From: Clostridia bacterium
GTDB taxonomy: Bacteria > Bacillota > Clostridia > Christensenellales > Borkfalkiaceae
NCBI GenBank assembly: GCA_017505625.1
Contig: JAFVOW010000102.1
Coordinates: 1-36,981, forward strand
Reading direction: 5' to 3'
Length of the DNA stretch: 36,981 nucleotides
Positions 2,954 through 24,036 of this stretch are shown here, piece after piece (position 1 is the first letter of the stretch; each line of letters begins with the position of its first letter). The position numbers and the translations under genes were made by a program. The notes beneath the pieces are model-generated. The model saw nothing but the letters and a program-made list of their open reading frames with translations. It was not told the DNA's origin and did no database searches.

Positions 2954-4239
2954 TACTTTTTCTCTATAAGTTCGTTTAATTCTTTTTTGAGATTTTGTTG
3001 AATTTCACTACGATTATGAAGTTTTTTACCGCACTCCCAACCTTTTTTAGCGTATTCGTCGAGATATGCGTCGTCATCTCTAATTTTTATTAAGGTTTGC
3101 TCTAACTGTTTTTTGTCGGTTACTACGATTGCACCGTCGTGGCGAAGAAGATGGTCTATTGAACCACATCTAGCATCGCCAACAGCGAGTTGCGGTCTGC
3201 AAGCCACCATTTGTCCTACGATTTTAGTAGAAAACGATTCTCTAACGGCAAGTCTTTCTTTAAGTCTAAAAGACTCTACGTGTACTAAAACGTCGCACTC
3301 ACGTTGAATTCTTTCGATTTCCGTATAAGGAACTTTACCCTTAAAATCTATTGCTTTACATTTTTTATATTTTTTTAAGATGGATTTTTTTAGTTGAGAT
3401 GCAGAATAAATATCTAAAGTCATCCCCCCGCCTATTTTATCGATAGCCCTGCCAATTCTAAGTAGTTCTTCCCATCGATGATTACCAAGATTTCCTGTAA
3501 ACACGAGTTTTCTTTCTTTATTATATTCAGTCTTAAACGTAGGTTCACCGTCAAAGACGTTGCCGTTTGCCATAATAACGCAAGGCTTTTTAAACCATCT
3601 TTCAGCACACTCTTTACCGACTTCAGAAACAACGTAAAGATACTCGCACATTTTTACCGTTCTTCTTACCTTTCCCCTTTGAGTTAATCTATCTATCCAA
3701 AAGAAGGGATTTAAAGAAAACTGATGCAAAGAATAGTTATCATCGCCGTAGTACCCTACCATTTTCACAGGCTGAATTTTAGCAACGAATTGGTGTACCC
3801 AATTCATATAAGGCATTCTATAGATAGGCGTAAACATAACGTCAGCGTTAAACTCTTTTACAACGTCAATTAAGTTTTGGTTACGCCAACGTCCAATTCG
3901 CCAAATAAAATTACGTCCCCAGCTAAAAATTCTGAGGTGAGTTTTTCTTGCAACGTTCATCCATTTGGTTTCGGTTTTACCCATCTCGTCTTTTTCGTCT
4001 AAATTTTCAGGCTCTATAATTTTACCGACGGGGTTCTTCTTGTTTTTTAAATTAGCAACAATTTGACCCATAGAAATTTGAAAATATTTAATGTTGGTCA
4101 TCTCAGTATTAGGATTACCGCCCATACAGTAAATATTTAAAATTTCTAAATCATCGATGCCGCCAAACAAATCGGAAAATACTTTGCCGAAACTATTATT
4201 TTTATTCCACGGATAATCGGAAACTATAAGTAATTTCAT
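2953..4239 (-). CDS. Putative glycosyltransferase-like protein (GT-B-like C-terminal half, family unassigned)
   Basis: 428 aa with no TM segments. The C-terminal part (GKVPYTEIERIQRECDVLVHVESF...ESFSTKIVGQMVACRPQLAVGD...GAIVV) resembles the second Rossmann domain of GT1/GT4 enzymes. I do not recognise the N-terminal half (MKLLIVSDYPWNKNNSFGKVFSDLFGG...NIYCMGGNPN). It abuts the flanking genes with 0-1 nt spacing. Confidence 0.4.
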   Translation of the reverse strand: MKLLIVSDYPWNKNNSFGKVFSDLFGGIDDLEILNIYCMGGNPNTEMTNIKYFQISMGQIVANLKNKKNPVGKIIEPENLDEKDEMGKTETKWMNVARKTHLRIFSWGRNFIWRIGRWRNQNLIDVVKEFNADVMFTPIYRMPYMNWVHQFVAKIQPVKMVGYYGDDNYSLHQFSLNPFFWIDRLTQRGKVRRTVKMCEYLYVVSEVGKECAERWFKKPCVIMANGNVFDGEPTFKTEYNKERKLVFTGNLGNHRWEELLRIGRAIDKIGGGMTLDIYSASQLKKSILKKYKKCKAIDFKGKVPYTEIERIQRECDVLVHVESFRLKERLAVRESFSTKIVGQMVACRPQLAVGDARCGSIDHLLRHDGAIVVTDKKQLEQTLIKIRDDDAYLDEYAKKGWECGKKLHNRSEIQQNLKKELNELIEKK

Positions 4240-5232
4240 TTATCTACTCCTATGGTTTAGGTAAAATCCCAAAGCAAAAGACATAACTTTATAGCCAAAA
4301 ATTCGATAAATTTTATATGCTTTGCTTACTTTAGGGTGAACGTGATAATATTTGAGATATTTTTTACAAAACTCTTTTAGCGATTTTCTAATTTCCTTTT
4401 TTTGCTTAGTAGTTGCTTGAACACTTTTTCTATACGTCAATGCCAAGGTAATCATAACTTGATAACAAACGTAGTTCATTAATATGTGAGATTTTCCACT
4501 TTCCACATCTAAAATAGACGGAGCATTATTAATAATTTCACATAAATCAAAGAGACTTTGAACTTTCATAGTCGTTGCCACAGACCCTGGACGGCCTATC
4601 CTATAAACGTACACCCTTTCTTGTATGGCGTCCACTTTAGGATTGGCACTGAATAATCTCACACACCAATCTATATCTTCTATAATTTTACTGTCGTCAA
4701 AATATGCTTGTGACTTTTCCAAAAACTTGCGGGAAATACACATCCCCCAAGCCGAAGGATTTAATCTATCATTAACTATAAGGAACTTTATTTTATCTTC
4801 ATTATCGGCTTTATAAAAATCAGTATAATCTATATCAGGCGTTAATACGTACTTTCCCGTAGACATTACATACCCTTGATAAAAAAGTTCTACAATATCG
4901 GGATTAGATTGTTCAAGTTTATTATTAATCTTAGATAAAACTTCACCATCAATCCAATAATCGTCAGAATCTAAAAAACATAAATAATCGCCGAGAGCAG
5001 ACTTCATCCCCACGTTTCTTGCCGACGCCGCCGTCCCGTGTTTTTTATGTATAACCCTAACTCTATTATCTTGACTTGCGTACTCTTCACAAATAGCAGG
5101 ACAAGTGTCGGGAGATTCATTATCTACAAGAACAAGTTCAAAGTCAGTAAAACTTTGACATAACACACTGTCTACACATTGTCTTAAATATTTTTCAGTT
5201 TTATAAACGGGGATAATTATACTAAATTTCAT
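4240..5232 (-). CDS. Glycosyltransferase family 2
   Basis: 330 aa. MKFSIIIPVYKTEKYLRQCVDSVLCQSFTDFELVLVDNESPDTC...ARNVGM...FLDSDDYW is the standard GT2 signature. The first acidic pair reads DN instead of DD. Confidence 0.88.
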   Translation of the reverse strand: MKFSIIIPVYKTEKYLRQCVDSVLCQSFTDFELVLVDNESPDTCPAICEEYASQDNRVRVIHKKHGTAASARNVGMKSALGDYLCFLDSDDYWIDGEVLSKINNKLEQSNPDIVELFYQGYVMSTGKYVLTPDIDYTDFYKADNEDKIKFLIVNDRLNPSAWGMCISRKFLEKSQAYFDDSKIIEDIDWCVRLFSANPKVDAIQERVYVYRIGRPGSVATTMKVQSLFDLCEIINNAPSILDVESGKSHILMNYVCYQVMITLALTYRKSVQATTKQKKEIRKSLKEFCKKYLKYYHVHPKVSKAYKIYRIFGYKVMSFALGFYLNHRSR

Positions 5233-5244
5233 ATCTATCCTTAT

Positions 5245-6363
5245 TTAAATCTTATAAATTTCTTTTATTTCTTCTTTTACAGAGTTTACCGTATAATCTT
5301 TTGCTTTTTCGTAAGCTTTCTCGCCCATTTCTTTGGCTTCTTCTCCGCTAAACACTGATAATATTTTTTTAGATAGTGTTTGGTAATCAGTAGGATTAAA
5401 CAAATACCCGTTTTCGCCATCTTCTATCAGTTCTTTATGGCCACGGTTTATCGACGCAATAATCGGTTTTTTACACAACATTGCTTCGATTATATTTAGT
5501 GGCAATCCTTCTCTATGACTACAAGATACGATTAAGTCAGTTATCGGAACAACCTTTTCTAAATCGGTTCTATAACCTAAAAATTTAACCGTTTCTTCTA
5601 GTCCTAATTCTTTTACTTTTTCAGTAAGTGTTTGTTGTAAAGGACCGTTTCCTGCGAGCAATACTTTTAGGTTAGGAATTTTATCTTTAATCTCGTTTAC
5701 TGCATTTATTAGGGTTGATTGGTTTTTATTTTTATTTAACTCTCCCGTACACAAAATAACGAAATCGTCTTGTTTTAAGTTTTCGTTTTCTCTCAAAACT
5801 TTGTAAGTGTTTTCATCAACCACGTGGTACCTTTCTTCAGAAACACCCACGCCGTGCATATGCACGACGTTGGTTTTAAACTTTTTACTTGCTAATTCAT
5901 AATCTTCTTTAGTAATAGTAATTAGCGTATCGCATTTTTTTGCAAAATGTTTTTCTATCGGATAAAACACCATCCACGCTTTTTTAGAAGCACCTTTGTA
6001 AAAATGAAAGCCGTGTGCCATGTAAACTACTTTAGTTCCTTTACGCCTTGCTTTTTTTGCTGCAAGTCTTGTGATAATTCCACCCATCGGGGTGTTGCAC
6101 TGAATTAAATCGTAGTTTTCGGTATTAATAATTTGTTTTAACTGTTTTAATGCTTTAAGATTATCCTTGCTTTTAGGAGAACGAGAAAACGGAACGTCAA
6201 AAACCTTTTCGACAAAATCTAATTTTAAGCCGTTTTTTTCTGACAAATTATCTTTTGCGGCAACGTGTACTTCTACTCCATCCTCGTGCAAAACTTCAAC
6301 TAGTGGTTTATGAAATTGACAAATATGGCTTTGAACTGTTGCCACCAACAAAACTTTTTTCAT
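5245..6363 (-). CDS. Glycosyltransferase, GT-B fold (GT4 / Glycos_transf_1)
   Basis: 372 aa. MKKVLLVATVQSHICQFHKPLVEVL at the N-terminus and SHREGLPLNIIEAMLCKKPIIAS...ELIEDGENGYLF at the C-terminus are typical of GT4. Confidence 0.85.
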   Translation of the reverse strand: MKKVLLVATVQSHICQFHKPLVEVLHEDGVEVHVAAKDNLSEKNGLKLDFVEKVFDVPFSRSPKSKDNLKALKQLKQIINTENYDLIQCNTPMGGIITRLAAKKARRKGTKVVYMAHGFHFYKGASKKAWMVFYPIEKHFAKKCDTLITITKEDYELASKKFKTNVVHMHGVGVSEERYHVVDENTYKVLRENENLKQDDFVILCTGELNKNKNQSTLINAVNEIKDKIPNLKVLLAGNGPLQQTLTEKVKELGLEETVKFLGYRTDLEKVVPITDLIVSCSHREGLPLNIIEAMLCKKPIIASINRGHKELIEDGENGYLFNPTDYQTLSKKILSVFSGEEAKEMGEKAYEKAKDYTVNSVKEEIKEIYKI

Positions 6364-7311
6364 TTATTTTTTACGCTTCTTTATCTCTAAAATCTTGTTA
6401 TATATACCTTGTTGATTTGACATTTGCATTATCCTATGGCCAGGGTCTCCATTACCTTCTATTATCGCAACTCCGTTTTCGAGTACCGCCAAGTCCCAAC
6501 CAACGTATTCAACTGAAAGGATTTCTCTGGATGCCTCTATAACCGTTTGCTTTACCCTTTCCCAATTTGGAACTTCAAACCCTAACATCTTCGCTTTTGT
6601 TTGAGGGTGAAAAATATATTTTGTTAATGCCACATCAATACAAGGAGAAATAACAATACCCGAATCTATATCAATGGCACCACAAACTCCCCCAGAAGAG
6701 AAATTGTCCACCAAACTTCCGCCACCACCAATTCTTAATGCGCAAGCCACAATCTCACCTTTGTAAGTTAAAGCTCGTATGGTGTTAACAGAATCAGGGT
6801 TCAGCTTAGATAAAGATTTGTGCTGAACCAACAATTCCTCTGCAATATAATCACGATAGTTTTCAATGTTATATTTTCCAATTTCTTCAGCGTTCAACTT
6901 AAATATTCCATTACCTTTGGAACCCACAATCGGTTTCATTATAATCGAACCATGTTTTTTGCAAAAATCCTCTAACTCTTGGCCTGTGGCATTCTCTAAA
7001 ACCAAATATTCTCTTTTTATATATGCCTTAAATTTTTCATTAAACTTTTGTTTATCTGAAAATACCATTAATTCCTGTTTGCAATTATTTTTGATGATTT
7101 TTTTACTTTTCTTATAAGTTAGATATTTTGCTCTTTCATAATTAGATTTCTTATAAAATTCATAACGGAAAAAATCATCAAAACTTGTACCAAAACGCAA
7201 TGCGCAATAAATTTGCTGGAAATATGCTCTTATATATCTTCCACGATAAAAAGTTTTTATGTTTTTATTAAATCTTTTAATTTGCTGTTTTAGAATTTTT
7301 AACTTATACAT
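6364..7311 (-). CDS. Sugar-transfer-associated ATP-grasp protein (ATPgrasp_ST-like amidoligase)
   Basis: 315 aa. The layout matches what I recall of Pfam ATPgrasp_ST: an N-terminal F.rYeFYkks..er..Yl segment, DKqkFnekF, KP..GskG.Gi, RIGGGGSLVDNFSSGGVCGAIDIDSG, HPQT...G..vPnW, and EYVGWDLAVLENGVAIIEGNGDPG at the C-terminus. Its stop directly abuts the next ATG (TAAATG). Confidence 0.7.
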   Translation of the reverse strand: MYKLKILKQQIKRFNKNIKTFYRGRYIRAYFQQIYCALRFGTSFDDFFRYEFYKKSNYERAKYLTYKKSKKIIKNNCKQELMVFSDKQKFNEKFKAYIKREYLVLENATGQELEDFCKKHGSIIMKPIVGSKGNGIFKLNAEEIGKYNIENYRDYIAEELLVQHKSLSKLNPDSVNTIRALTYKGEIVACALRIGGGGSLVDNFSSGGVCGAIDIDSGIVISPCIDVALTKYIFHPQTKAKMLGFEVPNWERVKQTVIEASREILSVEYVGWDLAVLENGVAIIEGNGDPGHRIMQMSNQQGIYNKILEIKKRKK

Positions 7312-7328
7312 AAATATTTTCCTATTCT

Positions 7329-8900
7329 CTAAAAGGGTATTTTAGTATGCACTGCGTAATACAAGTTTTCTATTATTGCTCTTTTTTTCGTATGTTCAAT
7401 ATTTTGAACTAAAACGCCTGTTGAATCAACTTTTTGATTCATATTATAACGCACCAATTTATAAATTTCATCGCCTATTCTCTGTTCTATTGACGCACTT
7501 AAAAATAAACAAAGAAGTTTTCTATTGTTGTAAGGAATTGCAATATCAAAAGAATATCTATGTTCTCCCGTAATAGTTAAGCCGTTCCATGCAGGGACTC
7601 TAAATTCCCAAAAAAATTGCTCTTGCCAGGGAACGTTACTATTTTTTGTTTCGTTAAAATACTTCTTTATGTAATCTTTGAATATTCTATCAGTTTTTCT
7701 AACCAACTTCCTATCGCCAAGAAACACTTTGTATAGCGTAGTACATTTTCTAGGAGATGGGGTTTTGCCAAATCTTTTCCTACCATTAAACCGTTTAGAA
7801 TAATATGCTCTGCCAATTTCTGAGCACCACGATTTAACCTCCACGTCAAAGTCGTTAACACTAGAAAAATAGCATCTCTTTCTTATATCGTTAGCATTAT
7901 TATAAAGGGTCCCACCACCGTTCCAAAACAATATTTCTCTAACTAAATCTAAATCATCAAAATCATCGTCTTCACTAGAAATTTCATATGTTTTATGCTT
8001 TAATCCCAGATTTTCGCATATTTTTTGTGCAGCCTTAGCATCAACTTTTTCCTTGTCAACTGAAACGTAACTAAAATAACTAAACTTTTCGTATAAACCG
8101 TTTGCACACGATAGCGTCGTTTTACTGTCACAACCGCCTGTAAGCGATATTGCTACGTGATTCCATTTTTTTGAAATCATTTTCAAACTATTGTGTAAAA
8201 CTTCTCCAATTTCAGTTGCTAACTCATTTTTTCCTTTAGATGTTGTTTCTATAGCATAGAATCGTCTCACTGTTATTTCGTCACCAATTGTAACGCAGTG
8301 ATTAGGAACTAACCTCTTTATTTCAGCAAAAGGAGATAAATCTCCTGGAAGATAATTGCCAAACAAACGGAAATGTTTATAGTTTATCAATCTTTTAACG
8401 TACTCGTCTTCTTTAAGATTCATTAAATCCCCTATCAATCGTGAGTGCGTAGAAACTATAATATTTTCATTAATTTTTCCATAGTAAGTTGTTTGTATGC
8501 AAGAAGGGTCTCCCAAAAGGTGTACCCCACTTTCATCTAAAATTATAAGGGTAAAAATACCACTTATTTGATTAAACTTCTCAAAAAAAGCGTTTTTATC
8601 GTTTACCCAAAAAGATAGCAGTTCTTGTACAATTTCGCTTTCTTCATATTGCAAAGTAAACGGATTGTACGCGTGTCCTATTAACACAAAACAGTTTTGC
8701 TCTAAACTGCAAACGTAACTCTTTTGTTTTTTATGCACTAAAAGTGTATATTGGTTTACGATTTTCTTTTCCCAATTATCATAAAAAGGATATTCTTTTT
8801 CATTAACCTGTGAATCGGTAAATAAAAACCCGTAAGCAAACAATTTATCCCTTAATGCTACGTTAACGTCTAAAATGCCCTTGATTTGTTCCGTAGTCAT
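7329..8900 (-). CDS. Asparagine-synthetase-like PP-loop ATP pyrophosphatase lacking the N-terminal nucleophile Cys (putative carboxylate-adenylating amidoligase)
   Basis: 523 aa. The central ISLTGGCDSKTTL matches the SGGxDS PP-loop. The preceding roughly 200 aa (SGIFTLIILDESGVHLLGDPSCIQTTYYG...IIVSTHSRLIGD) resemble the Ntn-type domain of AsnB. The protein begins MTTEQ, so there is no Cys2. The start overlaps the upstream stop (ATGA). Confidence 0.55.
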   Translation of the reverse strand: MTTEQIKGILDVNVALRDKLFAYGFLFTDSQVNEKEYPFYDNWEKKIVNQYTLLVHKKQKSYVCSLEQNCFVLIGHAYNPFTLQYEESEIVQELLSFWVNDKNAFFEKFNQISGIFTLIILDESGVHLLGDPSCIQTTYYGKINENIIVSTHSRLIGDLMNLKEDEYVKRLINYKHFRLFGNYLPGDLSPFAEIKRLVPNHCVTIGDEITVRRFYAIETTSKGKNELATEIGEVLHNSLKMISKKWNHVAISLTGGCDSKTTLSCANGLYEKFSYFSYVSVDKEKVDAKAAQKICENLGLKHKTYEISSEDDDFDDLDLVREILFWNGGGTLYNNANDIRKRCYFSSVNDFDVEVKSWCSEIGRAYYSKRFNGRKRFGKTPSPRKCTTLYKVFLGDRKLVRKTDRIFKDYIKKYFNETKNSNVPWQEQFFWEFRVPAWNGLTITGEHRYSFDIAIPYNNRKLLCLFLSASIEQRIGDEIYKLVRYNMNQKVDSTGVLVQNIEHTKKRAIIENLYYAVHTKIPF

Positions 8901-9799
8901 AACATTCCTACCTTTAAATTTTGAATAATTCTGCTAGTCAATCTCTCTCCGTTTCCCTCGCCCACAAAACTATTGTGTGGGGTGACGATAACGTTTTCCT
9001 TTTGCCATAAAGGACTGCTATTAGAAAGCGGTTCTTCATTAAAAACGTCTAGCACTGCACCGTAAAGCTTAGCATCAAGTGCTTCTAACATTGCATTTTC
9101 TTCTACAACTTGTCCTCGTGCAATATTAACTAAAATGCTTCCGTCTTTCATTTGACTAAATCTAGTTCTATCAAAAAGACCTTTAGTTAACTCGGTAAGT
9201 GGCAAAGTTAAAACTACTACGTCTGCGATATTTAATGCCTTATCGATATCGTTAATTTTATAAACTTTTCCAATTACGTCGTCTTGTCTTTCTTCTAGGT
9301 CGACGCCAATTAAATTAGTTCCAAAAGCCTTAAACCTTTTAGCACACTCTAAGCCGACGTTACCACAGCCGACGATTAAAACGGTTTTACCGTAAAGTTC
9401 AAAAATCTCTCTTTGCTTATCCCATTTGTTTTGGCTTTGGTTAGCGTTAAAAGTTTTTGCTTTTTTATATAAACTTAAAACTCCCCAAACGGCATATTCC
9501 GCCATAGGAATAGAATATACTCCACGTGCGTTAAAAATCTTTATACCACGTGAATTTATTTTATCCATTGGTACACGGTCAAACCCTGCACTTGTAAGCT
9601 GTACGTATTTAAGCGAAGAAAACTCGTCTATATCGTGATATAAAAACAGACCGTTGCAAATTACACCTTCAATATCAATAGGACTGCAAGGCAACTCGTC
9701 CTTTTCGTTTTGCATAAAAACTACGTCGTGACCGAGTGTTTTTAAGTTATTTAGTTGTTCGCTTGCGTTTCCCCAAGCACCCGTAACCAGTAGTTTCAC
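8897..9799 (-). CDS. D-isomer-specific 2-hydroxyacid dehydrogenase, NAD-binding
   Basis: 300 aa. Motifs seen are the Rossmann VGCGNVGLECAKRFKAFGTNLIGVDL, NIARGQVVEENAMLEAL, LDVFNEEPL and TPHNS, the family catalytic layout. The start is GTG and overlaps the upstream TAG by 1 nt. Confidence 0.85.
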   Translation of the reverse strand: MKLLVTGAWGNASEQLNNLKTLGHDVVFMQNEKDELPCSPIDIEGVICNGLFLYHDIDEFSSLKYVQLTSAGFDRVPMDKINSRGIKIFNARGVYSIPMAEYAVWGVLSLYKKAKTFNANQSQNKWDKQREIFELYGKTVLIVGCGNVGLECAKRFKAFGTNLIGVDLEERQDDVIGKVYKINDIDKALNIADVVVLTLPLTELTKGLFDRTRFSQMKDGSILVNIARGQVVEENAMLEALDAKLYGAVLDVFNEEPLSNSSPLWQKENVIVTPHNSFVGEGNGERLTSRIIQNLKVGML

Positions 9800-10797
9800 T
9801 AACAGTTTTCCTCTTTTTTTATTAATTTATTTTTTATCGTTTGAATTAATTTACCTACACCCCAATAAATTAACTTGCAAACGTAATGTAATATTGTCGC
9901 AGCGACTAATATACTTGCCGTTATCACTATCCAATTTATCGGGAAAGAGAAATACTTCTTTAGCACGGCTATAATTACGTATTGTACAACGTATATTTCT
10001 AGAGTTAATTTAGCAAGGTACGATAAACAACTTTTAATTACCTTAGGCAATCTTTCAAGTTTTTTATCGATTGAAGCAAAAGTCCAAAACACAAAAAACA
10101 ATAATGCGAAAGTTAATACTTGACTTATTATTTGAAACGGTGCAAGAACGGTATGTTTACTAAAAATAAGCTTAACTACAAAGCACAAAACGAAAAGCAC
10201 TACCGTAATTACTGGTATATACCAGTGAAACTTATTACGAAATCTTTCGTCGTTATACTTAAAGTATCCACCAAGGAGCATACTTTCAAAAAACAAGAAC
10301 CTTATCATCCACTCGTTTACGTTGTCGATATGATAACGACTTTTATCGTAGAAGAATAAGTAAAGGATTATATACGCTAATGCAACGATACCTGAGATTA
10401 AAGGAATTCTCTTTTTAAGCGGTTCGTATCTTCCAACGAAATAAAACGGAATATATAACAGCATTATAGAAGCTACAAAATGATAGTTGGTGGGGTAAAT
10501 AAACCACCACACAAACCCCGTTTTGTCAAACGTATAATACCCAAACGCAAAATAAACTAAGGTTATTAAAACTACGGGTAGATAAATTCTCCAAATTCTT
10601 TTACCGTACCAAAGGGGAAAACTTTTTTTAACGCTTAAAAGACAATACCCCGAAACGGCAAAGAAAATTACGTCACCTAAAAGACCACCTTTAGCGATAA
10701 TGTCTGTAGGATATATTCCTGTATAATGAGAATTGGTTATTAAGCACGTAGCAAGTGCTCTTAAAAACACTACAAAAAAAACTATTTTTTTATCCAA
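9799..10797 (-). CDS. Membrane O-acyltransferase (acyltransferase family 3)
   Basis: 332 aa with about 10 hydrophobic helices. The N-terminal FLRALATCLITNSH resembles the lRalA...H motif of Acyl_transf_3. The start is TTG (no in-frame ATG nearby) and overlaps the upstream gene by 8 nt. Confidence 0.7.
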   Translation of the reverse strand: MDKKIVFFVVFLRALATCLITNSHYTGIYPTDIIAKGGLLGDVIFFAVSGYCLLSVKKSFPLWYGKRIWRIYLPVVLITLVYFAFGYYTFDKTGFVWWFIYPTNYHFVASIMLLYIPFYFVGRYEPLKKRIPLISGIVALAYIILYLFFYDKSRYHIDNVNEWMIRFLFFESMLLGGYFKYNDERFRNKFHWYIPVITVVLFVLCFVVKLIFSKHTVLAPFQIISQVLTFALLFFVFWTFASIDKKLERLPKVIKSCLSYLAKLTLEIYVVQYVIIAVLKKYFSFPINWIVITASILVAATILHYVCKLIYWGVGKLIQTIKNKLIKKEENC

Positions 10798-11623
10798 TTT
10801 TTTCTAAAACTTTTTTTACTGCGATTTTAAGTTCAGTAAGGTTTTCCTTAAAATCTATTTTACCGTTTTCGCAGTCTTTTTGAAATGCGATAATTTCCTT
10901 CATGCCACTATCAAAGATTTTTTTAATTTCATTTAGGTCTGTTATAACCAAAGTGTTACAAAAACTTCTAGATAGTATTGCTGAAGTTGAACCTAGTCTA
11001 TGGTGTTCTGCTATAACTCGTTCGGCAGGGAGAAGCCCTTTGCCTAATGCGGCGATACCGCCAAATCCGTACGGAACACCTCTTGCCCTAAATTTGTTGC
11101 AAAGTTTTTCTACAGTGCCGTCGGCGAGAAGTTGAAACATAAACTTCATACCGTAGCCAAGACTTAAGTCGTTAAGTCCTATAAAAATCTCGTCAATACC
11201 GTCAAGTTCTAAAATATCATTAATGCAATCTACAGCTTCTGGAGTTTCTACAAGCGGTAAGGTTTTTGCTCTACCGTCTACTAAGCGAATAAATTCCTTA
11301 ACTTCTTCCACCGTCTTAAAGTAAGGTAGCATTATAATATCCGCCCCGGCCTCTATAATTTCGTCGATTTCTTGTTTAGAAGAACAATACTTGTCCGTTT
11401 CTTCGTGAATAGGATTACACCTTGCAACGACCTTAGCTTTAGAAAGAATCTCTTTCATTTTTTTTACGTCTTTAGGTGTGTGATGGCTTTGCACGGTATC
11501 CATACCGCCTTGCCTATCACTTTTCCCGATATACTCCATATCGACGAATATTCTATCAACCCCACTTGCTTCAGCAATTAACGCAACTTCGGGTTGATTT
11601 GTTATGTACATTAGTTTAAGCAT
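10790..11623 (-). CDS. HpcH/HpaI aldolase / citrate-lyase-like TIM-barrel protein
   Basis: 277 aa. GVDRIFVDMEYIGK, IIMLPYFKTVEEV, and especially PLVETPEAVDCINDILELDGIDEIFIGLNDLSLGYG match the iEt.eav.n...i....gvD.lfiG..DLs..lG core of the family. It overlaps the upstream gene by 8 nt. Confidence 0.55.
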   Translation of the reverse strand: MLKLMYITNQPEVALIAEASGVDRIFVDMEYIGKSDRQGGMDTVQSHHTPKDVKKMKEILSKAKVVARCNPIHEETDKYCSSKQEIDEIIEAGADIIMLPYFKTVEEVKEFIRLVDGRAKTLPLVETPEAVDCINDILELDGIDEIFIGLNDLSLGYGMKFMFQLLADGTVEKLCNKFRARGVPYGFGGIAALGKGLLPAERVIAEHHRLGSTSAILSRSFCNTLVITDLNEIKKIFDSGMKEIIAFQKDCENGKIDFKENLTELKIAVKKVLEKIG

Positions 11624-12275
11624 TTGAATCTTTGTCCTCTTCAGTAGCTACTACATTTTCAGCCGTTTGCGGGCCTTTTACCGTAGCACCGACGTTTTCG
11701 TTGTTTGCGTTAGTAAACACTTTTCCTATGGTCTTGAAAAATATTTTTAAGTCTAACCAAAAAGAAAGATGCTCTACGTACCAAACGTTAAGTTCGATTC
11801 GCCTATTCCACTCAACTTCTTTTCTTCCGTTAACTTGTGCCCAACCGGTAATTCCCGGACGAACGTTGAACATTTTCTTTTGTTCGTCGGTGTATTGGTC
11901 GTAAGGCCAAGGATGATAAGTTAGAGGCGGGCGTGGACCTATTAAAGACATGTCACCTTTAAGCAAATTAAAAAACTGAGGTAATTCATCTAAAGACGTT
12001 GCACGCAAAAATTTACCTACTTTAGTAACACGTGCATCACCTTTACCAGAATACACCCCACTTCCCATTTTTTCCGCACCGACACACATCGAACGGAATT
12101 TATAGATATTGTACACTTTTCCTTTTTTGCCGATTCGTTGTTGTTTAAAAATAATCGGACCCTTAGAAGTTACTTTTACTAAGAAGGCGATAATAAGTAA
12201 AATCGGAGAACATACGATTAAACCGATAAGCGAAACGAAAATATCAAAAAATCTTTTTAAAAAATACTTATACAT
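11616..12275 (-). CDS. Initiating phosphoglycosyl transferase (bacterial sugar transferase, small monotopic PglC/WbaP-C type)
   Basis: 219 aa. It has a single N-terminal hydrophobic helix (FFDIFVSLIGLIVCSPILLIIAFLV), then KGPIIFKQQRIGKKGKVYNIYKFRSM, DELPQFFNLLKGDMSLIGPRPP and RPGITGWAQVNGR, which are textbook PF02397 motifs. It is the first gene after a promoter. Confidence 0.9.
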   Translation of the reverse strand: MYKYFLKRFFDIFVSLIGLIVCSPILLIIAFLVKVTSKGPIIFKQQRIGKKGKVYNIYKFRSMCVGAEKMGSGVYSGKGDARVTKVGKFLRATSLDELPQFFNLLKGDMSLIGPRPPLTYHPWPYDQYTDEQKKMFNVRPGITGWAQVNGRKEVEWNRRIELNVWYVEHLSFWLDLKIFFKTIGKVFTNANNENVGATVKGPQTAENVVATEEDKDSNA

Positions 12276-12303
12276 ACAATTTGCCTATTTTATAATATAT
12301 AAT

Positions 12304-12332
12304 ATTATAACTCTATAATACTTAAAAGTCAA
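12304..12332 (-). promoter_or_regulatory. Sigma-A type promoter for the PGT-to-GT2 operon
   Basis: The minus strand reads TTGACT (12332-12327), a 17-nt spacer, then TATAAT (12309-12304). This lies about 30 nt upstream of the ATG at 12275. Confidence 0.55.
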
Positions 12333-12490
12333 TGCGCAAGTGAAACTTTTATCAAAAACATCCTTTTGCACCTTTTAAATCTTACTTTTTTGTCTATTTT
12401 TGGCTAATTTTTAGTGTTTTTTGCAATATCTTTAGCCAATTTATCGAAAAAAATATTTAACTAAAATCCTAACTTAATAAGTATATAAAC

Positions 12491-12534
12491 AAAAAACAAA
12501 ACCCTTCTCTAAACTATTCGAGAGAAGGGTTTTT
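12491..12534 (-). terminator. Rho-independent terminator after wzx (hairpin is flanked by A/T runs on both sides)
   Basis: A 9-bp stem, cccttctct (12502-12510) paired with agagaaggg (12521-12529), with a 10-nt loop. The minus-strand tail is ttttgtttttt. It lies about 35 nt after the wzx stop. Confidence 0.75.
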
Positions 12535-12563
12535 GGCTTATTTAACTTAAAACTACCAAAATT

Positions 12564-14039
12564 CTAACTATTTTCAGGATGTTTTGATTTTCTATTAATC
12601 TTATTTTTTAATGCTGAAAACAACGACATTACAGCTTGATTTTTTAGAATTATCGAGAGAACTAGGTATAATATAACCGAAAGAACAACCGATACTATAA
12701 CATATAAAATCATATTCGAGAACAAGTATTTGCTAGCCAAAACGACAGGAATAATTACCAAACTAGCTATAATACTTTTTATTAACGTTTTAACCGTTCC
12801 CTTTGTATTTACATATTTTCTTCCCTTAAAATAACACATTAAGAAAGCTACTAACTCTGCAATCAAAGTCGTAAAAGCCGCTGCTTCTACACCATAAAAT
12901 GGTATTAAAATAAAATTCAACCCTACGTTGACTATTGCACTAATAATTGTAACAATAAGGTAAAAATTTTCTTCTTTTTGCGGTATTAAAACAGCATGTC
13001 CCCAAAAGTATCCGCCCAAACAAAAGATAATGGCTACACTTAGAATAATAAAACTCGGAACGGCGGATATGTAATCTGTACCAGAAAGTAAAGTTATTAT
13101 CTCTTCACTTAAAGCGATAAGTCCAATAATCGTAGGAATAACCACAATTAAGGTGGTGTGCAAAATAGTTGATGCAGTATTGGAAATTTCTTCGCTGTCA
13201 TTTTTCCCTAGAAGCATAGCCATTCTAGGAATAGAAACCACTATCGCCGAAAATAAAACACTTTTTACGATTGCATAAATTTTATGCGAAACGGCATATA
13301 TTCCCACCGAATACTCACCGCATATAAAACCCAACACCACGGTATCCGAACTCGTGTAAATAGTAATTGAAGCGATAGAAACAAATAAAATTAAAATGGG
13401 TTTTAAGTGAGTTTTTAATTCCAAATTAAATGTAAATTTGATTTTACAATATTTTCTTGCAACAAAAAAATTTATGAGATTTGAAACGGCAATAACACTT
13501 GCGGTAATAATACAATAAATAACAACGTCGTTAGAATCTTTAATAAAAACGAACATTGCAATTATTGCTAGCAGTTGAAATATAATACTCCTGACCGTAA
13601 CGAACAAAAAGTCCTCGTAAATAGAGAAAACCCAATTTACCCCTATAGTTAGAAAAGCCACCTGTGTAGATAAAATTAAAAGAGGCAAGGTGTATTCTTG
13701 AAACTTGGGAACTAACAATAAAAGAACTGCCAAAATAGCGTAGGCAAACACTGAAGATAATACGTTTATAGAAAATACTTGACTTGCAAGTTGTCCGATT
13801 TTTAGTTTATCTTCTCTAACTTTAGCTCCTTCTCTTATAGCATACGTTTCTATACCAAGACCTGCAATAAGAACAATATACGCAATTACAGCCGTTGCAA
13901 AATTATACTGTCCTAAAGACTCAACTCCTAACGTTCTAGACACGTATGGAAAAGATATTAAAGGAAAAACAACTGCCATAAGATTTTTTATGGCGTTTAG
14001 AAGCATATTAAGTTTTAAGGACTTGTTTTCTTTACCCAT
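12564..14039 (-). CDS. wzx: Wzx-type oligosaccharide flippase (MOP superfamily, polysaccharide biosynthesis protein)
   Basis: 491 aa with about 12-14 hydrophobic helices. The N-terminal NAIKNLMAVVFPLISFPYVSRTLGVESLGQYNFA is typical of PF01943 flippases. Locus context supports the call. Confidence 0.8.
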   Translation of the reverse strand: MGKENKSLKLNMLLNAIKNLMAVVFPLISFPYVSRTLGVESLGQYNFATAVIAYIVLIAGLGIETYAIREGAKVREDKLKIGQLASQVFSINVLSSVFAYAILAVLLLLVPKFQEYTLPLLILSTQVAFLTIGVNWVFSIYEDFLFVTVRSIIFQLLAIIAMFVFIKDSNDVVIYCIITASVIAVSNLINFFVARKYCKIKFTFNLELKTHLKPILILFVSIASITIYTSSDTVVLGFICGEYSVGIYAVSHKIYAIVKSVLFSAIVVSIPRMAMLLGKNDSEEISNTASTILHTTLIVVIPTIIGLIALSEEIITLLSGTDYISAVPSFIILSVAIIFCLGGYFWGHAVLIPQKEENFYLIVTIISAIVNVGLNFILIPFYGVEAAAFTTLIAELVAFLMCYFKGRKYVNTKGTVKTLIKSIIASLVIIPVVLASKYLFSNMILYVIVSVVLSVILYLVLSIILKNQAVMSLFSALKNKINRKSKHPENS

Positions 14040-14057
14040 AATAATAAAACTTTTTCC

Positions 14058-14762
14058 TTAAATAAGATTACGAATTTTTTTTATTGCACTAAAAACAACC
14101 CTTTCAAAGACGTTATATCTATCTTTAATTACCGCCTTTCTCTCAATATTGCTTAAAGTTTCCCCTTCTTTTGTCTCGCTAACTCCGCCGTCTAAAAATT
14201 CACAGAAAATTTTATCACAGTGATAAAATTTAGCGCCGTTAATTTTAGCATCCAAGAAAAACTTCCAGTCTGAAGCAATTTTAAGAGTATCGTCATAGCA
14301 ACCTATTTTTTCAAACAAATCTTTTGAAATAAAAGATGCTTGATGACAAATTGTTCCGCTATAAAAAAACCTTTTGCTAGGTTTTGAAAGATATTTATAT
14401 TCACCACAAGATTTTGAATATCGGTTACCGTATATTATATCTGCGTTAACACCCTCTAATTCCTTTGCAACGTAGGACAAAATATCGTTAGAATAGAACT
14501 TGTCCCCGCAATTCATAAAAATAAGATATTTGCCTTTTGCCTCGTAAATGGCTTGATTCATCGCATCATATATGCCCTTGTCTTTCTTGCAAACAACTTT
14601 TATCCTATCATCTTTGGGAATTTTTTCTAAAGTTTTATCTTTTGACTCGCCGTCCTTAACTATTATTTCAAAATCTTTATACGTCTGACCTAATACTGAA
14701 TTTAAGGTGTCTAATATTAAATTTTCGGCATTTAATGCAACTGTTATTATTGAAAACAACAT
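14058..14762 (-). CDS. Glycosyltransferase family 2, WcaE-like short form
   Basis: 234 aa. SIITVALNAENLILDTLNSV...FEIIVKDGESKDKT...GIYDAMNQAIYEAKGKYLIFMNCGDKF parallels my recollection of E. coli WcaE (SIITVA...FEWIVVDGGSNDGT...GIYDAMNKGI...GKF..FLNSGD). An AAGGAG SD site lies upstream. Confidence 0.85.
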   Translation of the reverse strand: MLFSIITVALNAENLILDTLNSVLGQTYKDFEIIVKDGESKDKTLEKIPKDDRIKVVCKKDKGIYDAMNQAIYEAKGKYLIFMNCGDKFYSNDILSYVAKELEGVNADIIYGNRYSKSCGEYKYLSKPSKRFFYSGTICHQASFISKDLFEKIGCYDDTLKIASDWKFFLDAKINGAKFYHCDKIFCEFLDGGVSETKEGETLSNIERKAVIKDRYNVFERVVFSAIKKIRNLI

Positions 14763-18172: not shown

Positions 18173-18184
18173 GTTTTTAGCCCT

Positions 18185-20764
<2,580 letters not shown>

Positions 20765-20778
20765 TTAACCCATTAAAA

Positions 20779-21516: not shown

Positions 21517-21533
21517 ATACTCCCCTTTAAGTT

Positions 21534-22544: not shown

Positions 22545-22564
22545 AGTTGCTCTCCTTAAAACTT

Positions 22565-23134: not shown

Positions 23135-23166
23135 TTATCTTTTACCTTTTGTCTATATTAGCTGGT

Positions 23167-23195
23167 ATTATATCATTAACGACTATTTTAGTCAA
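23167..23195 (-). promoter_or_regulatory. Sigma-A promoter with extended -10 for the YgjV-to-PepV operon
   Basis: The minus strand reads TTGACT (23195-23190), a 17-nt spacer ending in TGA, then TATAAT (23172-23167). This gives a TGnTATAAT extended -10. Confidence 0.6.
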
Positions 23196-23243
23196 TGCGT
23201 TGTATATAATCATTACTTATATCAATTTTTTTGTTCAAAAGAC

Positions 23244-23277
23244 AAAAAAGATGAGTGAATTTTCGCTCATCTTTTTT
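23244..23277 (-). terminator. Rho-independent terminator after the SGNH-like gene
   Basis: Hairpin of agatgag(tg) at 23249-23257 paired with (cg)ctcatct at 23264-23272. It is flanked by an A-run and a T-run. It starts 6 nt after the stop at 23283. Confidence 0.7.
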
Positions 23278-23282
23278 CTTTT

Positions 23283-24017: not shown

Positions 24018-24036
24018 TTTTTTTCTCCATTTATAA

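Follow-up and report, generated by a model that had tools for sequence, protein, structure and literature searches.

Organization of the locus

The window analyzed here, a stretch of 36,981 nucleotides from a Clostridia bacterium, was checked for open reading frames, and five genes were found on the minus strand where the first-pass annotation had placed them, between a gene for a small phosphoglycosyl transferase (PGT) and a GT4 glycosyltransferase gene, GT4a. The PGT gene (11616-12275, minus strand) encodes a small monotopic enzyme of 219 aa (Bac_transf, 237 bits) with the motifs DELPQ (11976-11990) and GPRP (11928-11939). A promoter-like site on the same strand (12304-12332; TTGACT-17-TATAAT, 11/12) lies 29 nt ahead of the first codon of PGT and is a possible beginning of a transcription unit running from PGT to EpsG; it was recognised by consensus matching only, and such sites were no more numerous in the region than the shuffled expectation.

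The five genes encode an HpcH/HpaI-like TIM barrel (10790-11623, 277 aa; HpcH_HpaI, 35.8 bits against a cut-off of 25), an AT3 membrane O-acyltransferase (9799-10797, 332 aa; Acyl_transf_3, 82.8 bits) whose TTG start is uncertain, being merely the earliest candidate start codon, a D-2-hydroxyacid dehydrogenase (2-HADH; 8897-9799, 300 aa, GTG start; 2-Hacid_dh_C, 175.5 bits), a Cys-less AsnB-like PP-loop enzyme (AsnBL; 7329-8900, 523 aa; Asn_synthase, 23 bits against a cut-off of 21) and a sugar-transfer-associated ATP-grasp protein (ATPgrasp_ST; 6364-7311, 315 aa; Pfam, 169 bits). GT4a (5245-6363, minus strand, 372 aa) has a Glyco_trans_4_2 N-domain. The profile scores upheld all five earlier family assignments, and no glycosyltransferase family match was obtained for any of the five genes in the family profile search, in agreement with the earlier statement that none of them is a glycosyltransferase.

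Coordinates and junctions bore out the overlaps of 8, 8, 1 and 4 nt noted before: PGT/HpcH-like (ATGCTTAA, 8 nt), HpcH-like/AT3 (TTGGATAA, 8 nt), AT3/2-HADH (TAGTG, 1 nt) and 2-HADH/AsnBL (ATGA, 4 nt). The ATP-grasp gene is preceded by a 17-nt spacer containing AGGAAAA, and GT4a abuts it with no spacer. Genes for a UDP-sugar dehydrogenase, a sugar aminotransferase or a CapD-type dehydratase were looked for in the window and not found. The operon continues past the left end of the window, and its left part also encodes a glucose-1-P cytidylyltransferase and a CDP-glucose 4,6-dehydratase (RfbF/RfbG).

A widespread starter module with optional inserts

The locus was compared with about 170 related loci, among them a subset of 26 HpcH-centred metagenome loci. 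The common element was a module of small PGT, HpcH-like protein and, as third gene, 2-HADH, usually with a conserved GT4. In the HpcH-centred subset PGT was present in 26/26 loci, the HpcH-like gene in 26/26 and 2-HADH in 24/26, and PGT adjoined the HpcH-like gene in every one. The order PGT, HpcH-like, 2-HADH, AsnBL recurred in dozens of loci from several phyla, indicating that the arrangement is not due to chance, and the order PGT, HpcH-like, AsnBL, 2-HADH was found in WOR-3, TA06 and Pacearchaeota. Two fusions were observed, PGT::HpcH-like (P0181, in two independent assemblies) and HADH::AsnBL (P0005). GT4a relatives with 52-60% identity directly followed 2-HADH or AsnBL in many loci, and 20/26 HpcH-centred loci carried it with an identity of >=40%; it is the fourth module member and probably adds the second sugar.

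The ligase genes were not constant. Modules without them occurred (for example L076, L078 and L079), and in the HpcH-centred loci the backbone was otherwise conserved when AsnBL and ATP-grasp were absent. The two ligase-type genes occur together in many loci: ATPgrasp_ST was the neighbour of AsnBL in about 14 of the genome loci and in 5/26 of the metagenome loci. AT3 was found at the same position only in L059 and L119 (45-49% identity), and L081, the most closely related locus, lacks it; it is a rare accessory insert between the HpcH-like gene and 2-HADH. These findings show that the PGT/HpcH-like/2-HADH starter module is very widespread and uncharacterised, and that the five genes are a mosaic of starter-module genes and the optional inserts AsnBL, ATP-grasp and AT3. 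They do not form the single five-gene cassette proposed at first, since the HpcH-like gene and 2-HADH go with PGT and do so also without the ligases. The literature search found no paper on this gene combination, in agreement with the first-pass annotation, which knew of no characterised pathway of this kind.

That annotation had also proposed a small acid-derived substituent attached by amide linkage. In such a free-acid model the HpcH-like protein and 2-HADH would make a free D-2-hydroxy acid (for example D-glycerate, D-lactate or a 2,4-dihydroxy acid), and the PglB2-like ATPgrasp_ST, AsnBL or both would then join the acid to a glycan amine, or an amine to the acid. PglB2, a PGT with an ATP-grasp domain, makes the glyceramido sugar GATDH (PMC11130364, PMC6959607), and the ATP-grasp protein of the window scores strongly as ATPgrasp_ST. 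2-HADH matched D-2-hydroxyacid dehydrogenase and PGDH best in NCBIfam, and its nearest PDB relatives are broad-specificity 2-HADH, PGDH and glyoxylate reductases. Moreover, two loci (L047 and L072) pair the same dehydrogenase with a Ddl-family ligase, like VanH/VanA; they carry CapD and PGT and lack the HpcH-like gene, a combination that our preferred reading, given below, leaves unexplained and that counts against it. Nevertheless, we consider a free acid improbable. Most module loci have no ligase able to attach it, the window has no aminotransferase or dehydratase for an amino-sugar acceptor, and the PGT::HpcH-like fusion implies action on the substrate or product of PGT. Ligase-free modules and this fusion together argue against a small acid ligated later and favour reactions that take place on the initiating sugar while it is linked to a nucleotide or a lipid.

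The reading that we prefer, with a probability of about 0.42, is that the starter module and its inserts give the first sugar of a gut-bacterial polysaccharide an acidic branch of three carbons, which is then capped. It is supported by the persistence of the module as a unit without ligases and by the PGT::HpcH-like fusion. Gene order, overlaps, fusions, folds and motifs were observed directly; every substrate in this scheme is inferred.

Proposed formation and reduction of the branch

The HpcH-like protein would be a Mg-dependent enzyme that joins pyruvate, through its C3, to an NDP-4-keto-6-deoxy sugar at the C4 ketone, giving a 4-C-(2-oxo-3-carboxypropyl) branch comparable to that of shewanellose. 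Its motifs are D28-M-E-Y31 (11531-11542), R37-QGGMDT (11495-11515), R68-CNP (11411-11425), LVE126TPEA (11234-11254) and GLND152LS (11162-11179). In alignment, E126 and D152 fall on the metal-ligand positions of aldolases of the HpcH family, which supports an aldolase-type reading, and we propose that the protein is a pyruvate-enolate enzyme of class II aldolase type. The same motifs are present in a proteobacterial branch at 45% identity, and the family comprises at least 8000 90%-identity clusters. In Foldseek the AF2 model (pLDDT 87) came as near to pyruvate kinase barrels as to HpaI/HpcH/YfaU (TM about 0.6); the protein belongs to the pyruvate-kinase-like barrel superfamily, as a divergent member. 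Several of these features count against the preferred reading, namely the equal distance from pyruvate kinase and aldolases, the weak family membership (35.8 bits) and the apparent replacement, in the motif alignment, of the catalytic or base His by Tyr. Ketone acceptors are also unusual among HpcH/HpaI family enzymes.

The likeness to PEP-binding pyruvate kinase, as close as that to aldolases, would also suit a muramic-acid-like route, in which the barrel takes an enolpyruvyl or carboxyethyl unit from PEP and places it on one of the hydroxyls of the initiating sugar, 2-HADH reduces it to a lactyl ether, and AsnBL and ATP-grasp add amino acids in the manner of Mur ligases. The GxND motif presumably resembles that of PEP-utilising enzymes, 1-carboxyethyl sugars occur in rumen Butyrivibrio exopolysaccharides, AsnBL homologues adjoin MurE (L019, 540 bits) and MurC (L065, 386 bits), and P0502 is a fusion of an AsnBL domain with Glyco_tran_28_C. 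However, a 2-HADH acts on C=O and not on the C=C of an enol ether, and the frequently linked CapD dehydratase would be left without a role. In L114, L141 and L169 a class IV (BCAT-like) aminotransferase and a DapDC-like decarboxylase stand in place of 2-HADH, and this variant needs a 2-oxo acid rather than an enol ether. We regard the muramic-acid-like route as very improbable.

The neighbouring gene that would process C2 thus varies, being 2-HADH in most loci and aminotransferase plus decarboxylase in these three, which points to a 2-oxo acid as the product of the HpcH-like enzyme. In the preferred scheme of an acidic C-branch, 2-HADH would, judging from its family, reduce the side-chain 2-oxo group to D-2-hydroxy. 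Proteobacterial loci had neither 2-HADH nor the aminotransferase/decarboxylase pair beside the HpcH-like gene.

The keto sugar in most relatives would be UDP-4-keto-6-deoxy-GlcNAc from a CapD/PglF-type dehydratase. A CapD-like gene (Polysacc_synt_2, E 1e-116) lay directly upstream of PGT in 18/26 HpcH-centred loci, spanning at least 7 distinct arrangements; such a gene was also upstream in L005, L012 and L027. No SDR reductase or DegT that could consume the 4-keto product was found in L005, and tblastn found no DegT in any non-proteobacterial starter-module locus. In the window, the sugar may come from an unlinked dehydratase or may be CDP-4-keto-6-deoxyglucose made by the operon's own RfbF/RfbG, for whose CDP-glucose 4,6-dehydratase no 4-keto-processing partner is visible. 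The CapD-linked loci and this dehydratase together link a keto-sugar source to the module and support the preferred reading. Against it, no UDP-GlcNAc 4,6-dehydratase was found in the window or the extended operon, many module loci have none within 10 kb, and, to our knowledge, a CDP-linked keto sugar is not a known type of PGT donor. The window PGT matched PglC structures (158 bits) about as well as WbaP (144 bits).

Proposed amidation of the carboxylate

AsnBL carries a PP-loop, TGGCDSK (8121-8141), and the family signatures KSWCSEIGR (7809-7835) and DIAIPYNN (7524-7547). Its description as a Cys-less AsnB-like protein proved apt, for it has the full two-domain AsnB fold, no N-terminal Cys (the first Cys is residue 64) and G-H-A in place of the glutamine-binding N-G-E (canonical AsnB, 93% by hhalign). 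The best Foldseek matches of its AF2 model (pLDDT 86.5) were beta-lactam synthetase, carbapenam synthetase, TsnB9 and AsnB. No specific Pfam or NCBIfam model was found for it, Asn_synthase being borderline and the NCBIfam matches sub-threshold, and the family forms 250 50%-identity clusters at E<=1e-30. We propose that AsnBL is a carboxylate-AMP-forming amide synthetase; its many invariant Arg/Lys residues suggest a nucleotide- or pyrophosphate-linked substrate. In keeping with its fold, it would adenylate the new carboxylate. The nitrogen of the amide would come from ammonia or, since AsnBL cannot hydrolyse glutamine, more likely from an amino compound.

AsnBL adjoined 2-HADH or the HpcH-like gene in about 30 loci. 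Canonical AsnB overlapped the HpcH-like gene by 1-4 nt in L086, L087 and L088 and shared an operon with it in L082, L089 and L090. This coupling, the AsnBL adjacency and the HADH::AsnBL fusion indicate that the carboxylate is amidated. The proteobacterial pairs occur inside legionaminic-acid-type operons with NeuB, NeuC, a CMP-transferase and a small PGT, and could modify a nonulosonic acid instead, which counts against the preferred reading. In all, canonical AsnB was found in several related loci (c33 in L038, L039, L054 and L058; AsnB in L082-L090), and it co-occurs with AsnBL in some, so that the two are not simply redundant.

The main rival, which we judge unlikely, is that AsnBL and ATP-grasp amidate a (HexNAc-)uronic acid residue at its C6 carboxylate, using ammonia, amino acids or amino alcohols, with the UDP-sugar dehydrogenase encoded outside the window and the HpcH-like protein and 2-HADH acting on the initiating sugar, unrelated to the ligases. 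A UDP-sugar 6-dehydrogenase was present in 22 loci and directly upstream of AsnBL in about 15, where AsnBL is followed by an NAD epimerase and often a TupA-like ATP-grasp; L006 combines dehydrogenase and AsnBL, surrounded by four ATP-grasp genes. A remote AsnBL homologue follows wecB-wecC on the E. coli capsule plasmid pCE1537-B, and the ATP-dependent amidoligase Cj1438C of C. jejuni, the Campylobacter precedent invoked before and a real one, acts on GlcA in the growing chain (PMC11800397). The dehydrogenase, MurE/MurC and wecB-wecC contexts mean that the carboxylate target of AsnBL in the window is not fixed, a point against the C-branched sugar. The analogy to uronic-acid amidation fits other loci but not the window, which, with its extended operon, has no dehydrogenase or epimerase; about 24 other PGT/HpcH-like/2-HADH/AsnBL loci also have neither. 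AsnBL lies between the HpcH-like gene and 2-HADH in deep-branching phyla and is fused to 2-HADH in P0005, proteobacterial AsnB is translationally coupled to the HpcH-like gene where uronic-acid genes are absent, and in L002 AsnBL and ATP-grasp remain by 2-HADH while the TupA-like ATP-grasp stands by the dehydrogenase. ATPgrasp_ST finds its closest precedent in Neisseria PglB2, an enzyme that N-acylates an amino sugar (PMC11130364) and is no uronamide ligase.

To complete the proposed C-branched unit, ATPgrasp_ST, by sequence a RimK/GshB-like carboxylate-amine ligase (NCBIfam match alpha-L-glutamate-ligase-like), would add a further amino acid to the carboxylate brought in by the AsnBL step. 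AT3 would O-acylate the completed unit, PGT would put the sugar on undecaprenyl phosphate, and GT4a would add the second sugar.

Comparison with known systems

The HpcH-like protein shares with the class II pyruvate aldolases HpcH/HpaI/YfaU the TIM barrel, the metal-binding Glu/Asp and a Pfam match above the gathering score, but is only about 15-19% identical to them. Unlike these catabolic enzymes, it is biosynthetic and PGT-linked by context. Its residues K34-H48 form a conserved lid that is disordered, and its C-terminus is extended by 45 residues of helical structure.

AsnBL has the two-domain AsnB fold in common with its best structural matches, beta-lactam synthetase, carbapenam synthetase and TsnB9 (Foldseek E 5e-16 to 1e-14), at 11-14% sequence identity. 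The N-domain of beta-lactam and carbapenam synthetase does not act as a glutaminase, and enzymes of the beta-lactam synthetase type adenylate a carboxylate by the PP-loop before attack by a non-glutamine nitrogen. That group acts on small secondary-metabolite acids, whereas AsnBL sits in polysaccharide and cell-envelope loci. Canonical AsnB amidotransferases of the WbpS/WbtH type convert a sugar carboxylate to an amide in O-antigen loci; their Cys2 and glutamine-binding motif are missing in AsnBL.

With C. jejuni HS:2 glucuronamide formation by the C-terminal amidoligase of Cj1438, the locus would share the ATP-dependent amide decoration of a polysaccharide carboxylate, which in HS:2 is capsular (PMC11800397). 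The HS:2 logic suits the AsnBL homologues flanked by UDP-sugar dehydrogenase, epimerase and TupA-like ATP-grasp. In contrast, the window has no uronic-acid synthesis or amine-donor pathway (aminotransferase, decarboxylase, phosphatase), and its ligases are of the ATPgrasp_ST and AsnB-like families. Neisseria PglB2, a PGT fused to ATP-grasp, makes a glyceramido-acetamido-trideoxyhexose (PMC11130364, PMC6959607). It resembles the window in combining a sugar-transfer-associated ATP-grasp with a small PGT and puts a hydroxy-acid amide on the initiating sugar. However, it N-acylates a 4-amino sugar from a dehydratase and an aminotransferase, neither of which the window encodes, and the window ATP-grasp is a separate, optional gene travelling with AsnBL.

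Shewanellose, 2-acetamido-2,6-dideoxy-4-C-(3'-carboxamide-2',2'-dihydroxypropyl)-D-galactose, accompanies an 8-epilegionaminic acid derivative in the O-polysaccharide of Shewanella putrefaciens A6 (PMC4052302). Its structure is known, and no paper on its biosynthesis was found in the literature search. The 2'-keto group is kept as a gem-diol in shewanellose, whereas the window 2-HADH would reduce it. The amide would be formed in the window by Cys-less AsnBL and ATP-grasp and in the proteobacterial operons by glutamine-dependent AsnB, and the window has no UDP-GlcNAc 4,6-dehydratase. Shewanellose resembles the proposed product in being a 6-deoxy-HexNAc that bears, at C4, a three-carbon branch derived from pyruvate, with the carboxylate amidated, and it is a structural precedent in favour of the preferred reading. 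The proteobacterial HpcH-like/AsnB/legionaminic-type gene set matches what is expected for shewanellose, and these operons may be linked to its formation.

Organization of the polysaccharide operon

The window has a G+C content of approximately 35%, and ORF and family searches placed a polysaccharide operon on its minus strand. In transcription order, the operon starts with two GT2 genes (15766-14058) and a Wzx-like flippase gene (14039-12564). A gap of 288 nt, in which a promoter-like TTGACT-17-TATAAT sequence was noted (12332-12304), separates these from a small phosphoglycosyl transferase (PGT) gene (12275-11616). The five genes under study lie directly downstream and encode an HpcH-like protein (10790-11623), an O-acyltransferase (AT3, 9799-10797), a D-2-hydroxyacid dehydrogenase (2-HADH, 8897-9799), a Cys-less AsnB-like protein (AsnBL, 7329-8900) and an ATP-grasp protein (ATPgrasp_ST, 6364-7311). 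They are followed by a GT4 gene (GT4a, 6363-5245), a GT2 gene, a gene for a 428-aa protein, a second GT4 gene and an EpsG-type polymerase gene (1745-696). The coordinates of the five ORFs and the overlaps of 8, 8, 1 and 4 nt were exactly as the first-pass annotation had given them, and its family calls were upheld for all five genes (HpcH_HpaI, 35.8 bits; Acyl_transf_3, 82.8 bits; 2-Hacid_dh_C, 175.5 bits; Asn_synthase, 23 bits; ATPgrasp_ST, 169 bits). Family searches found no glycosyltransferase among the five, and an Rfam search of the window gave no match.

The operon is cut by the left end of the window (positions 1-696 and beyond), and its continuation was read from contigs carrying an identical EpsG gene (L091, 11050-17325; L093). 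It encodes a GT2, a 334-aa protein that carries an HVRGAD motif and by eye resembles a fucosyltransferase, a glucose-1-P cytidylyltransferase (382 bits), a CDP-glucose 4,6-dehydratase (454 bits), a further GT2, and uncharacterised proteins of 377 and 508 aa. Because its operon encodes this cytidylyltransferase and dehydratase, the locus makes a keto sugar, which is CDP-linked. No 4-keto reductase, 3-dehydrase or other recognisable 4-keto-processing partner was seen in the continuation, and UDP-GlcNAc 4,6-dehydratase was absent both from it and from the 37-kb window.

The 428-aa protein (2953-4239, minus strand) had no Pfam or NCBIfam match; it is kept in at least 13 related polysaccharide loci at 22-78% identity, always adjoining a GT4 gene and an EpsG-type polymerase gene. 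Elsewhere on the minus strand, a 2053-aa ORF with a TTG start (30690-36851) had no Pfam match at E<=1e-4 and adjoins a 416-aa ORF, also without a Pfam match, and an ABC-ATPase/FtsX-permease pair (28645-29298 and 26336-28648). Carbohydrate-utilisation genes unrelated to the present finding lie beside the operon (16775-25347, minus strand) and encode an M20 peptidase, a GH2 beta-galactosidase (856 aa), an esterase, a PHP-domain protein, a DUF4886 protein and a GH39-like protein.

Features of the encoded proteins

The HpcH-like protein matched the HpcH/HpaI class II aldolase/citrate-lyase family (PF03328, cut-off 25 bits) over residues 8-158 of 277, and its scores against NCBIfam equivalogs were far below their cut-offs. 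The AF2 model (pLDDT 87) is a (beta/alpha)8 barrel of the pyruvate-kinase-like superfamily, for which Foldseek returned HpaI, HpcH and YfaU at TM scores of approximately 0.60-0.67, with pyruvate kinase barrels equally close. The segments LVE126TPEA and GLND152L align with MIETREA and GPTDL of the hydroxyketoacid aldolase 6r62, which contain the divalent-metal ligands Glu and Asp; E126 and D152, like R68, were invariant (the first two among 24 homologues). By eye only, R68 falls where the family has its enolate-stabilising Arg, and D28-x-E30-Y31 where it has the D-x-E-H motif, with Tyr apparently in place of the catalytic His. From these motifs and the model, the protein is predicted to be a divergent, metal-dependent enzyme that binds pyruvate or another 2-oxo acid. 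Its family comprises at least 8000 clusters at 90% identity, mostly of 277 aa and approximately 70% identical. A PEP-mutase/phosphonate route, with PepM and a phosphonopyruvate reductase-like 2-HADH, was rejected: the sole PEP_mutase match was weak (E 0.006), no PepM signature motif was seen in the sequence, and neither PEP mutase nor isocitrate lyase was among the top 50 Foldseek matches of the model.

The dehydrogenase belongs with the D-isomer-specific 2-hydroxyacid dehydrogenases and carries the GxGxxG motif and the catalytic Arg, Glu, His triad (motifs at residues 144-149, 225-229, 251-257 and 273-277). ATPgrasp_ST matched the sugar-transfer-associated ATP-grasp family (PF14397, cut-off 31.4 bits) over nearly its full length, and its nearest NCBIfam models are alpha-L-glutamate ligases; its gene shares the operon with the PGT gene, and it was placed as PglB2-type by profile and operon. 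The Acyl_transf_3 multi-spanning membrane domain covers residues 11-306 of AT3. Assignment of the PGT donor sugar from similarity was dropped, PglC and WbaP scoring about equally. GT4a as a BshA-like enzyme acting on a free hydroxy acid was also rejected, since the 104-bit BshA match reflects generic GT4 similarity and the other GT4 of the window matches BshA too.

AsnBL has no specific Pfam or NCBIfam model: the Asn_synthase match was borderline (cut-off 21 bits), NCBIfam matches were sub-threshold, and sequence matches in the PDB were marginal only. The family is nevertheless large and well conserved, with 1522 homologues at 90% clustering and 250, 1709 and 3929 clusters at 50% identity at E<=1e-30, 1e-10 and 1e-3, respectively. 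The AlphaFold model built from 24 homologues (pLDDT 86.5, pTM 0.90) matched beta-lactam synthetase, carbapenam synthetase (CarA), TsnB9 and AsnB over its full length across both domains (Foldseek). The PP-loop is intact (TGGCDS, residues 254-259, SGGxDS-type). The N-terminus reads MTTEQ, so the nucleophile Cys2 is missing; the first Cys is residue 64, the N-domain contains no Cys invariant among the 24 homologues, and in profile-profile alignment (hhalign) G-H-A stands opposite the glutamine-binding N-G-E of canonical AsnB. Because the N-terminal Cys is lacking and N-G-E is replaced while the PP-loop is kept, AsnBL is predicted to be an adenylating amide synthetase unable to use glutamine, and the earlier label of a Cys-less AsnB-like enzyme is correct. 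A fusion of AsnBL with a GT28 C-terminal domain occurs in one representative.

Genomic contexts of AsnBL

A scan with an AsnBL profile, using one genome per species and followed by tblastn and ORF clustering over flanks of +/-10 kb, gave 72 loci from Clostridia, Erysipelotrichaceae, Bacteroidales, Coriobacteriaceae, WOR-3, TA06 and one Pacearchaeota MAG. In half of these (36/72), AsnBL had PGT, HpcH-like and HADH genes beside it or close by, most often arranged in this order and ending with a GT4 52-60% identical to that of the window; in the deep-branching phyla the order was PGT, HpcH-like, AsnBL, HADH. ATPgrasp_ST was present in only about 14 of the 72 loci and AT3 in one (L059). A reading of the genes upstream of the module in WOR-3 and TA06 as amino-sugar genes was rejected, as on sequence inspection they look like housekeeping genes (phosphotransacylase-like, RpiB-like).

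A UDP-sugar 6-dehydrogenase gene was found in 22 of the loci, and in about 15 of these AsnBL sits directly between it and an NAD epimerase gene, often followed by a TupA-like ATP-grasp gene. In the AsnBL tree, these uronic acid-type contexts are intermixed with those of the PGT/HpcH-like/HADH type. In view of such repeated association of AsnBL with HexNAc-uronic acid genes, we retain as an alternative that the ligases of the window amidate a uronic acid made elsewhere. No UDP-sugar 6-dehydrogenase occurs in the window or the extended operon, and the uronic acid framing in the first-pass annotation is not supported for this locus.

Several other neighbourhoods were recorded. AsnBL homologues lie immediately downstream of MurE (540 bits; L019, 8499-11578) and immediately upstream of MurC (386 bits; L065, 9989-13030), the latter beside a protein DivIVA-like by eye; these neighbours hint that peptidoglycan precursors are the substrates of some AsnBL homologues. 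Plasmid matches were remote homologues only. A remote AsnBL homologue follows wecB-wecC in the kps-like capsule locus of E. coli plasmid pCE1537-B (NZ_MT162140.1, 46652-48997; L084), which contains wecB, wecC, a 74-aa ORF and a gene for a 781-aa "asparagine synthase-related protein" whose C-terminal 430 aa are 26% identical to AsnBL. A UDP-sugar dehydrogenase, two ATPgrasp_ST, AsnBL and two more ATPgrasp_ST genes follow one another in this order in L006 (~7000-14300), a set that may build a peptide-like decoration stepwise on a sugar acid. L047 and L072 (~2500-8600) carry a CapD-like gene on the opposite strand, then PGT, 2-HADH and D-Ala-D-Ala-ligase-family (Ddl) genes with no HpcH-like gene, followed by UDP-sugar dehydrogenase, AsnBL and epimerase genes; their 2-HADH and Ddl-family genes resemble a VanH/VanA pair within a polysaccharide locus.

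A starter module with optional inserts

Look-ups of HpcH-like homologues revealed a ligase-free opening of PGT, HpcH-like and HADH genes, without AsnBL, in three loci (L076, L078, L079). A PGT::HpcH-like fusion was present in two independent assemblies, and an HADH::AsnBL fusion in L081, which is syntenic with the window locus and contains no AT3. A metagenome scan with the HpcH-like profile yielded 26 loci with adequate flanks, which contained PGT (26), HADH (24), GT4a (20), a CapD-like dehydratase (18), AsnBL (11), ATP-grasp (5) and AT3 (1). Many share a backbone of CapD, PGT, HpcH-like, HADH and GT4a, into which either AsnBL or the set of ATP-grasp, AsnBL and a 456-aa membrane protein is inserted. 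AT3 recurs between HpcH-like and HADH in L059 and L119. The five genes are a mosaic, the ligases being optional inserts, because the inserts vary on one shared backbone. The first-pass annotation had treated them as a single decoration cassette; this view was not sustained, and co-occurrence mining showed ATP-grasp and AsnBL inserted together in some loci but the five genes as no fixed unit.

The 456-aa polytopic protein, inserted with AsnBL between HADH and GT4a in L130 (14354-15724) and nine similar loci, resembles a transporter of the NhaC type, as judged only by eye from its sequence, and may bring in the amine or amino acid that AsnBL would use.

A CapD/PglF-type gene (Polysacc_synt_2, E 1e-116) lay immediately upstream of PGT in the 18 metagenome loci mentioned and in L005, L012 and L027. 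The product of this family is UDP-2-acetamido-2,6-dideoxy-hexos-4-ulose. No SDR reductase or DegT to consume the 4-keto product was found in L005, and tblastn detected DegT in none of the non-proteobacterial module loci. A general tie of the module to CDP-glucose 4,6-dehydratase (RfbF/RfbG) was rejected, as the pair occurs only in the window's own locus, RfbF being also present in L058.

The gene after HpcH-like varies, 2-HADH being the usual one. In L114 (7680-14832), L141 and L169 the order is CapD-like, HpcH-like, a DAP-decarboxylase-family gene (E 1e-23), PGT, a class IV (branched-chain/D-amino-acid type) aminotransferase gene (E 3e-70 to BCAT structures) and a GT4a-like gene, with no 2-HADH. 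2-HADH, class IV aminotransferase and DAP decarboxylase all work on a 2-oxo acid, at its C2 or C1, and this variant suggests conversion of the branch to an amino acid or amine.

The proteobacterial branch

A proteobacterial branch of the HpcH-like family is 45% identical and keeps the same motifs. Its genes invariably share an operon with a canonical AsnB that contains the Cys, and in three genomes the two overlap by 1-4 nt. CBS-DegT, NeuB, NeuC and CMP-transferase genes belong to the operon as well, often together with genes for acetamidino formation; a small PGT gene adjoins it, and HADH is absent. In Rhodobacterales and other Proteobacteria (L082/L083, L086, L087, L089, L090), the conserved operon consists of CBS-DegT, AsnB, HpcH-like, NeuB, a PglD-like acetyltransferase, NeuC and CMP-transferase genes, with the small PGT adjoining it, and is a candidate gene set for shewanellose and legionaminic acid. 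To our knowledge, shewanellose is the only natural product that fits the logic of an AsnB, HpcH-like and NeuB-type operon. This sugar is 2-acetamido-2,6-dideoxy-4-C-(3'-carboxamide-2',2'-dihydroxypropyl)-D-galactose, and it occurs along with an 8-epilegionaminic acid derivative (PMC4052302). Formally, its branch corresponds to pyruvamide whose methyl carbon has been linked to the C4 ketone carried by the CapD/PglF product.

Proposed function of the module

The starter module needs neither a ligase nor a nucleotidyltransferase and can be fused to PGT; therefore, the substrate of HpcH-like and HADH must be a sugar that has already been activated by linkage to a nucleotide or lipid, and the other reactants must be common metabolites. 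The same two properties, no need for a ligase and fusion to PGT, argue against the earlier proposal that a free hydroxy or amino acid is made and attached by amide linkage, of which the families and the amide-forming logic stand.

We tentatively propose, at a probability of about 0.3, that the PGT/HpcH-like/2-HADH module is an unrecognised route to shewanellose-related, C-branched acidic sugars. The class II aldolase-like enzyme would join pyruvate to a nucleotide-linked 4-keto-6-deoxy sugar through a C-C bond in an aldol-type addition. Reduction, transamination, decarboxylation or amidation would then vary the branch, with amidation falling to the new Cys-less AsnB-like ligase family. In the window, 2-HADH would reduce the side-chain 2-oxo group, AsnBL would adenylate the new carboxylate and form an amide, ATPgrasp_ST would extend it, AT3 would O-acylate, and PGT and GT4a would start the repeat unit. 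Weak points of this proposal for the window are the absence of UDP-GlcNAc 4,6-dehydratase from the window and the operon's continuation, the CDP linkage of the window's keto sugar, and the fact that RfbF/RfbG are not general to module loci. Nor does the proposal account for L047 and L072, which carry CapD, PGT, HADH and a Ddl-family ligase without HpcH-like.

Two enzyme families, both uncharacterised and very widespread, underlie this version of a known polysaccharide-decoration logic. How shewanellose-type branched sugars are made appears to be uncharacterised, and the C-branching of nucleotide sugars known to us is carried out by ThDP or SAM enzymes, not aldolases. Thousands of polysaccharide operons in gut Firmicutes begin with this module, and it is also present in Bacteroidales, WOR-3, TA06 and a MAG labelled Pacearchaeota. 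Cultured carriers in the comparison set include Faecousia intestinalis CLA-AA-H192 (L026), Erysipelotrichaceae bacterium NK3D112 (L069) and Ruminococcaceae bacterium P7 (L045). Because gut and rumen metagenomes hold the module in extreme abundance, as the HpcH-like cluster count indicates, and it is currently annotated as aldolase plus dehydrogenase, its chemical assignment would alter the reading of a large share of commensal capsule and exopolysaccharide loci. The AsnBL family would add a new class of glycan or cell-envelope amide ligases beside ATP-grasp and canonical AsnB enzymes, and the optional addition of ligase genes to a conserved backbone seems to be a means by which surface antigens are diversified within species.

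Comparison with known systems

No paper was found on the PGT/HpcH-like/2-HADH module or on AsnBL, and a literature search on the five-gene combination found nothing relevant. Beta-lactam synthetase and carbapenam synthetase, AsnB homologues that do not use glutamine, are precedents for AsnBL in this respect. Cj1438C of C. jejuni (PMC11800397) is a precedent for amide decoration of capsule carboxylates. A UDP-sugar 6-dehydrogenase encoded in the locus to supply the uronic acid, as expected for a pathway of the Cj1438/WbpS type, is present in the 22 AsnBL loci but not in the window or the extended operon. For ATPgrasp_ST, the precedent is Neisseria PglB2, which joins a PGT to an ATP-grasp and yields a glyceramido sugar (PMC11130364, PMC6959607). 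Of the UDP-GlcNAc 4,6-dehydratase and DegT-type aminotransferase that would make the 4-amino acceptor in a PglB2-type pathway to N-acylated bacillosamine, the window has neither, no CapD/PglF-like or DegT-like gene being present. Of the hypothetical shewanellose-type set, the window encodes a PGT and both the aldolase-like and AsnB-like enzymes but no CapD, and the CDP-glucose 4,6-dehydratase of its own operon lies just outside. In shewanellose the 2-oxo group is kept as a gem-diol, whereas the window encodes a 2-HADH proposed to reduce it.
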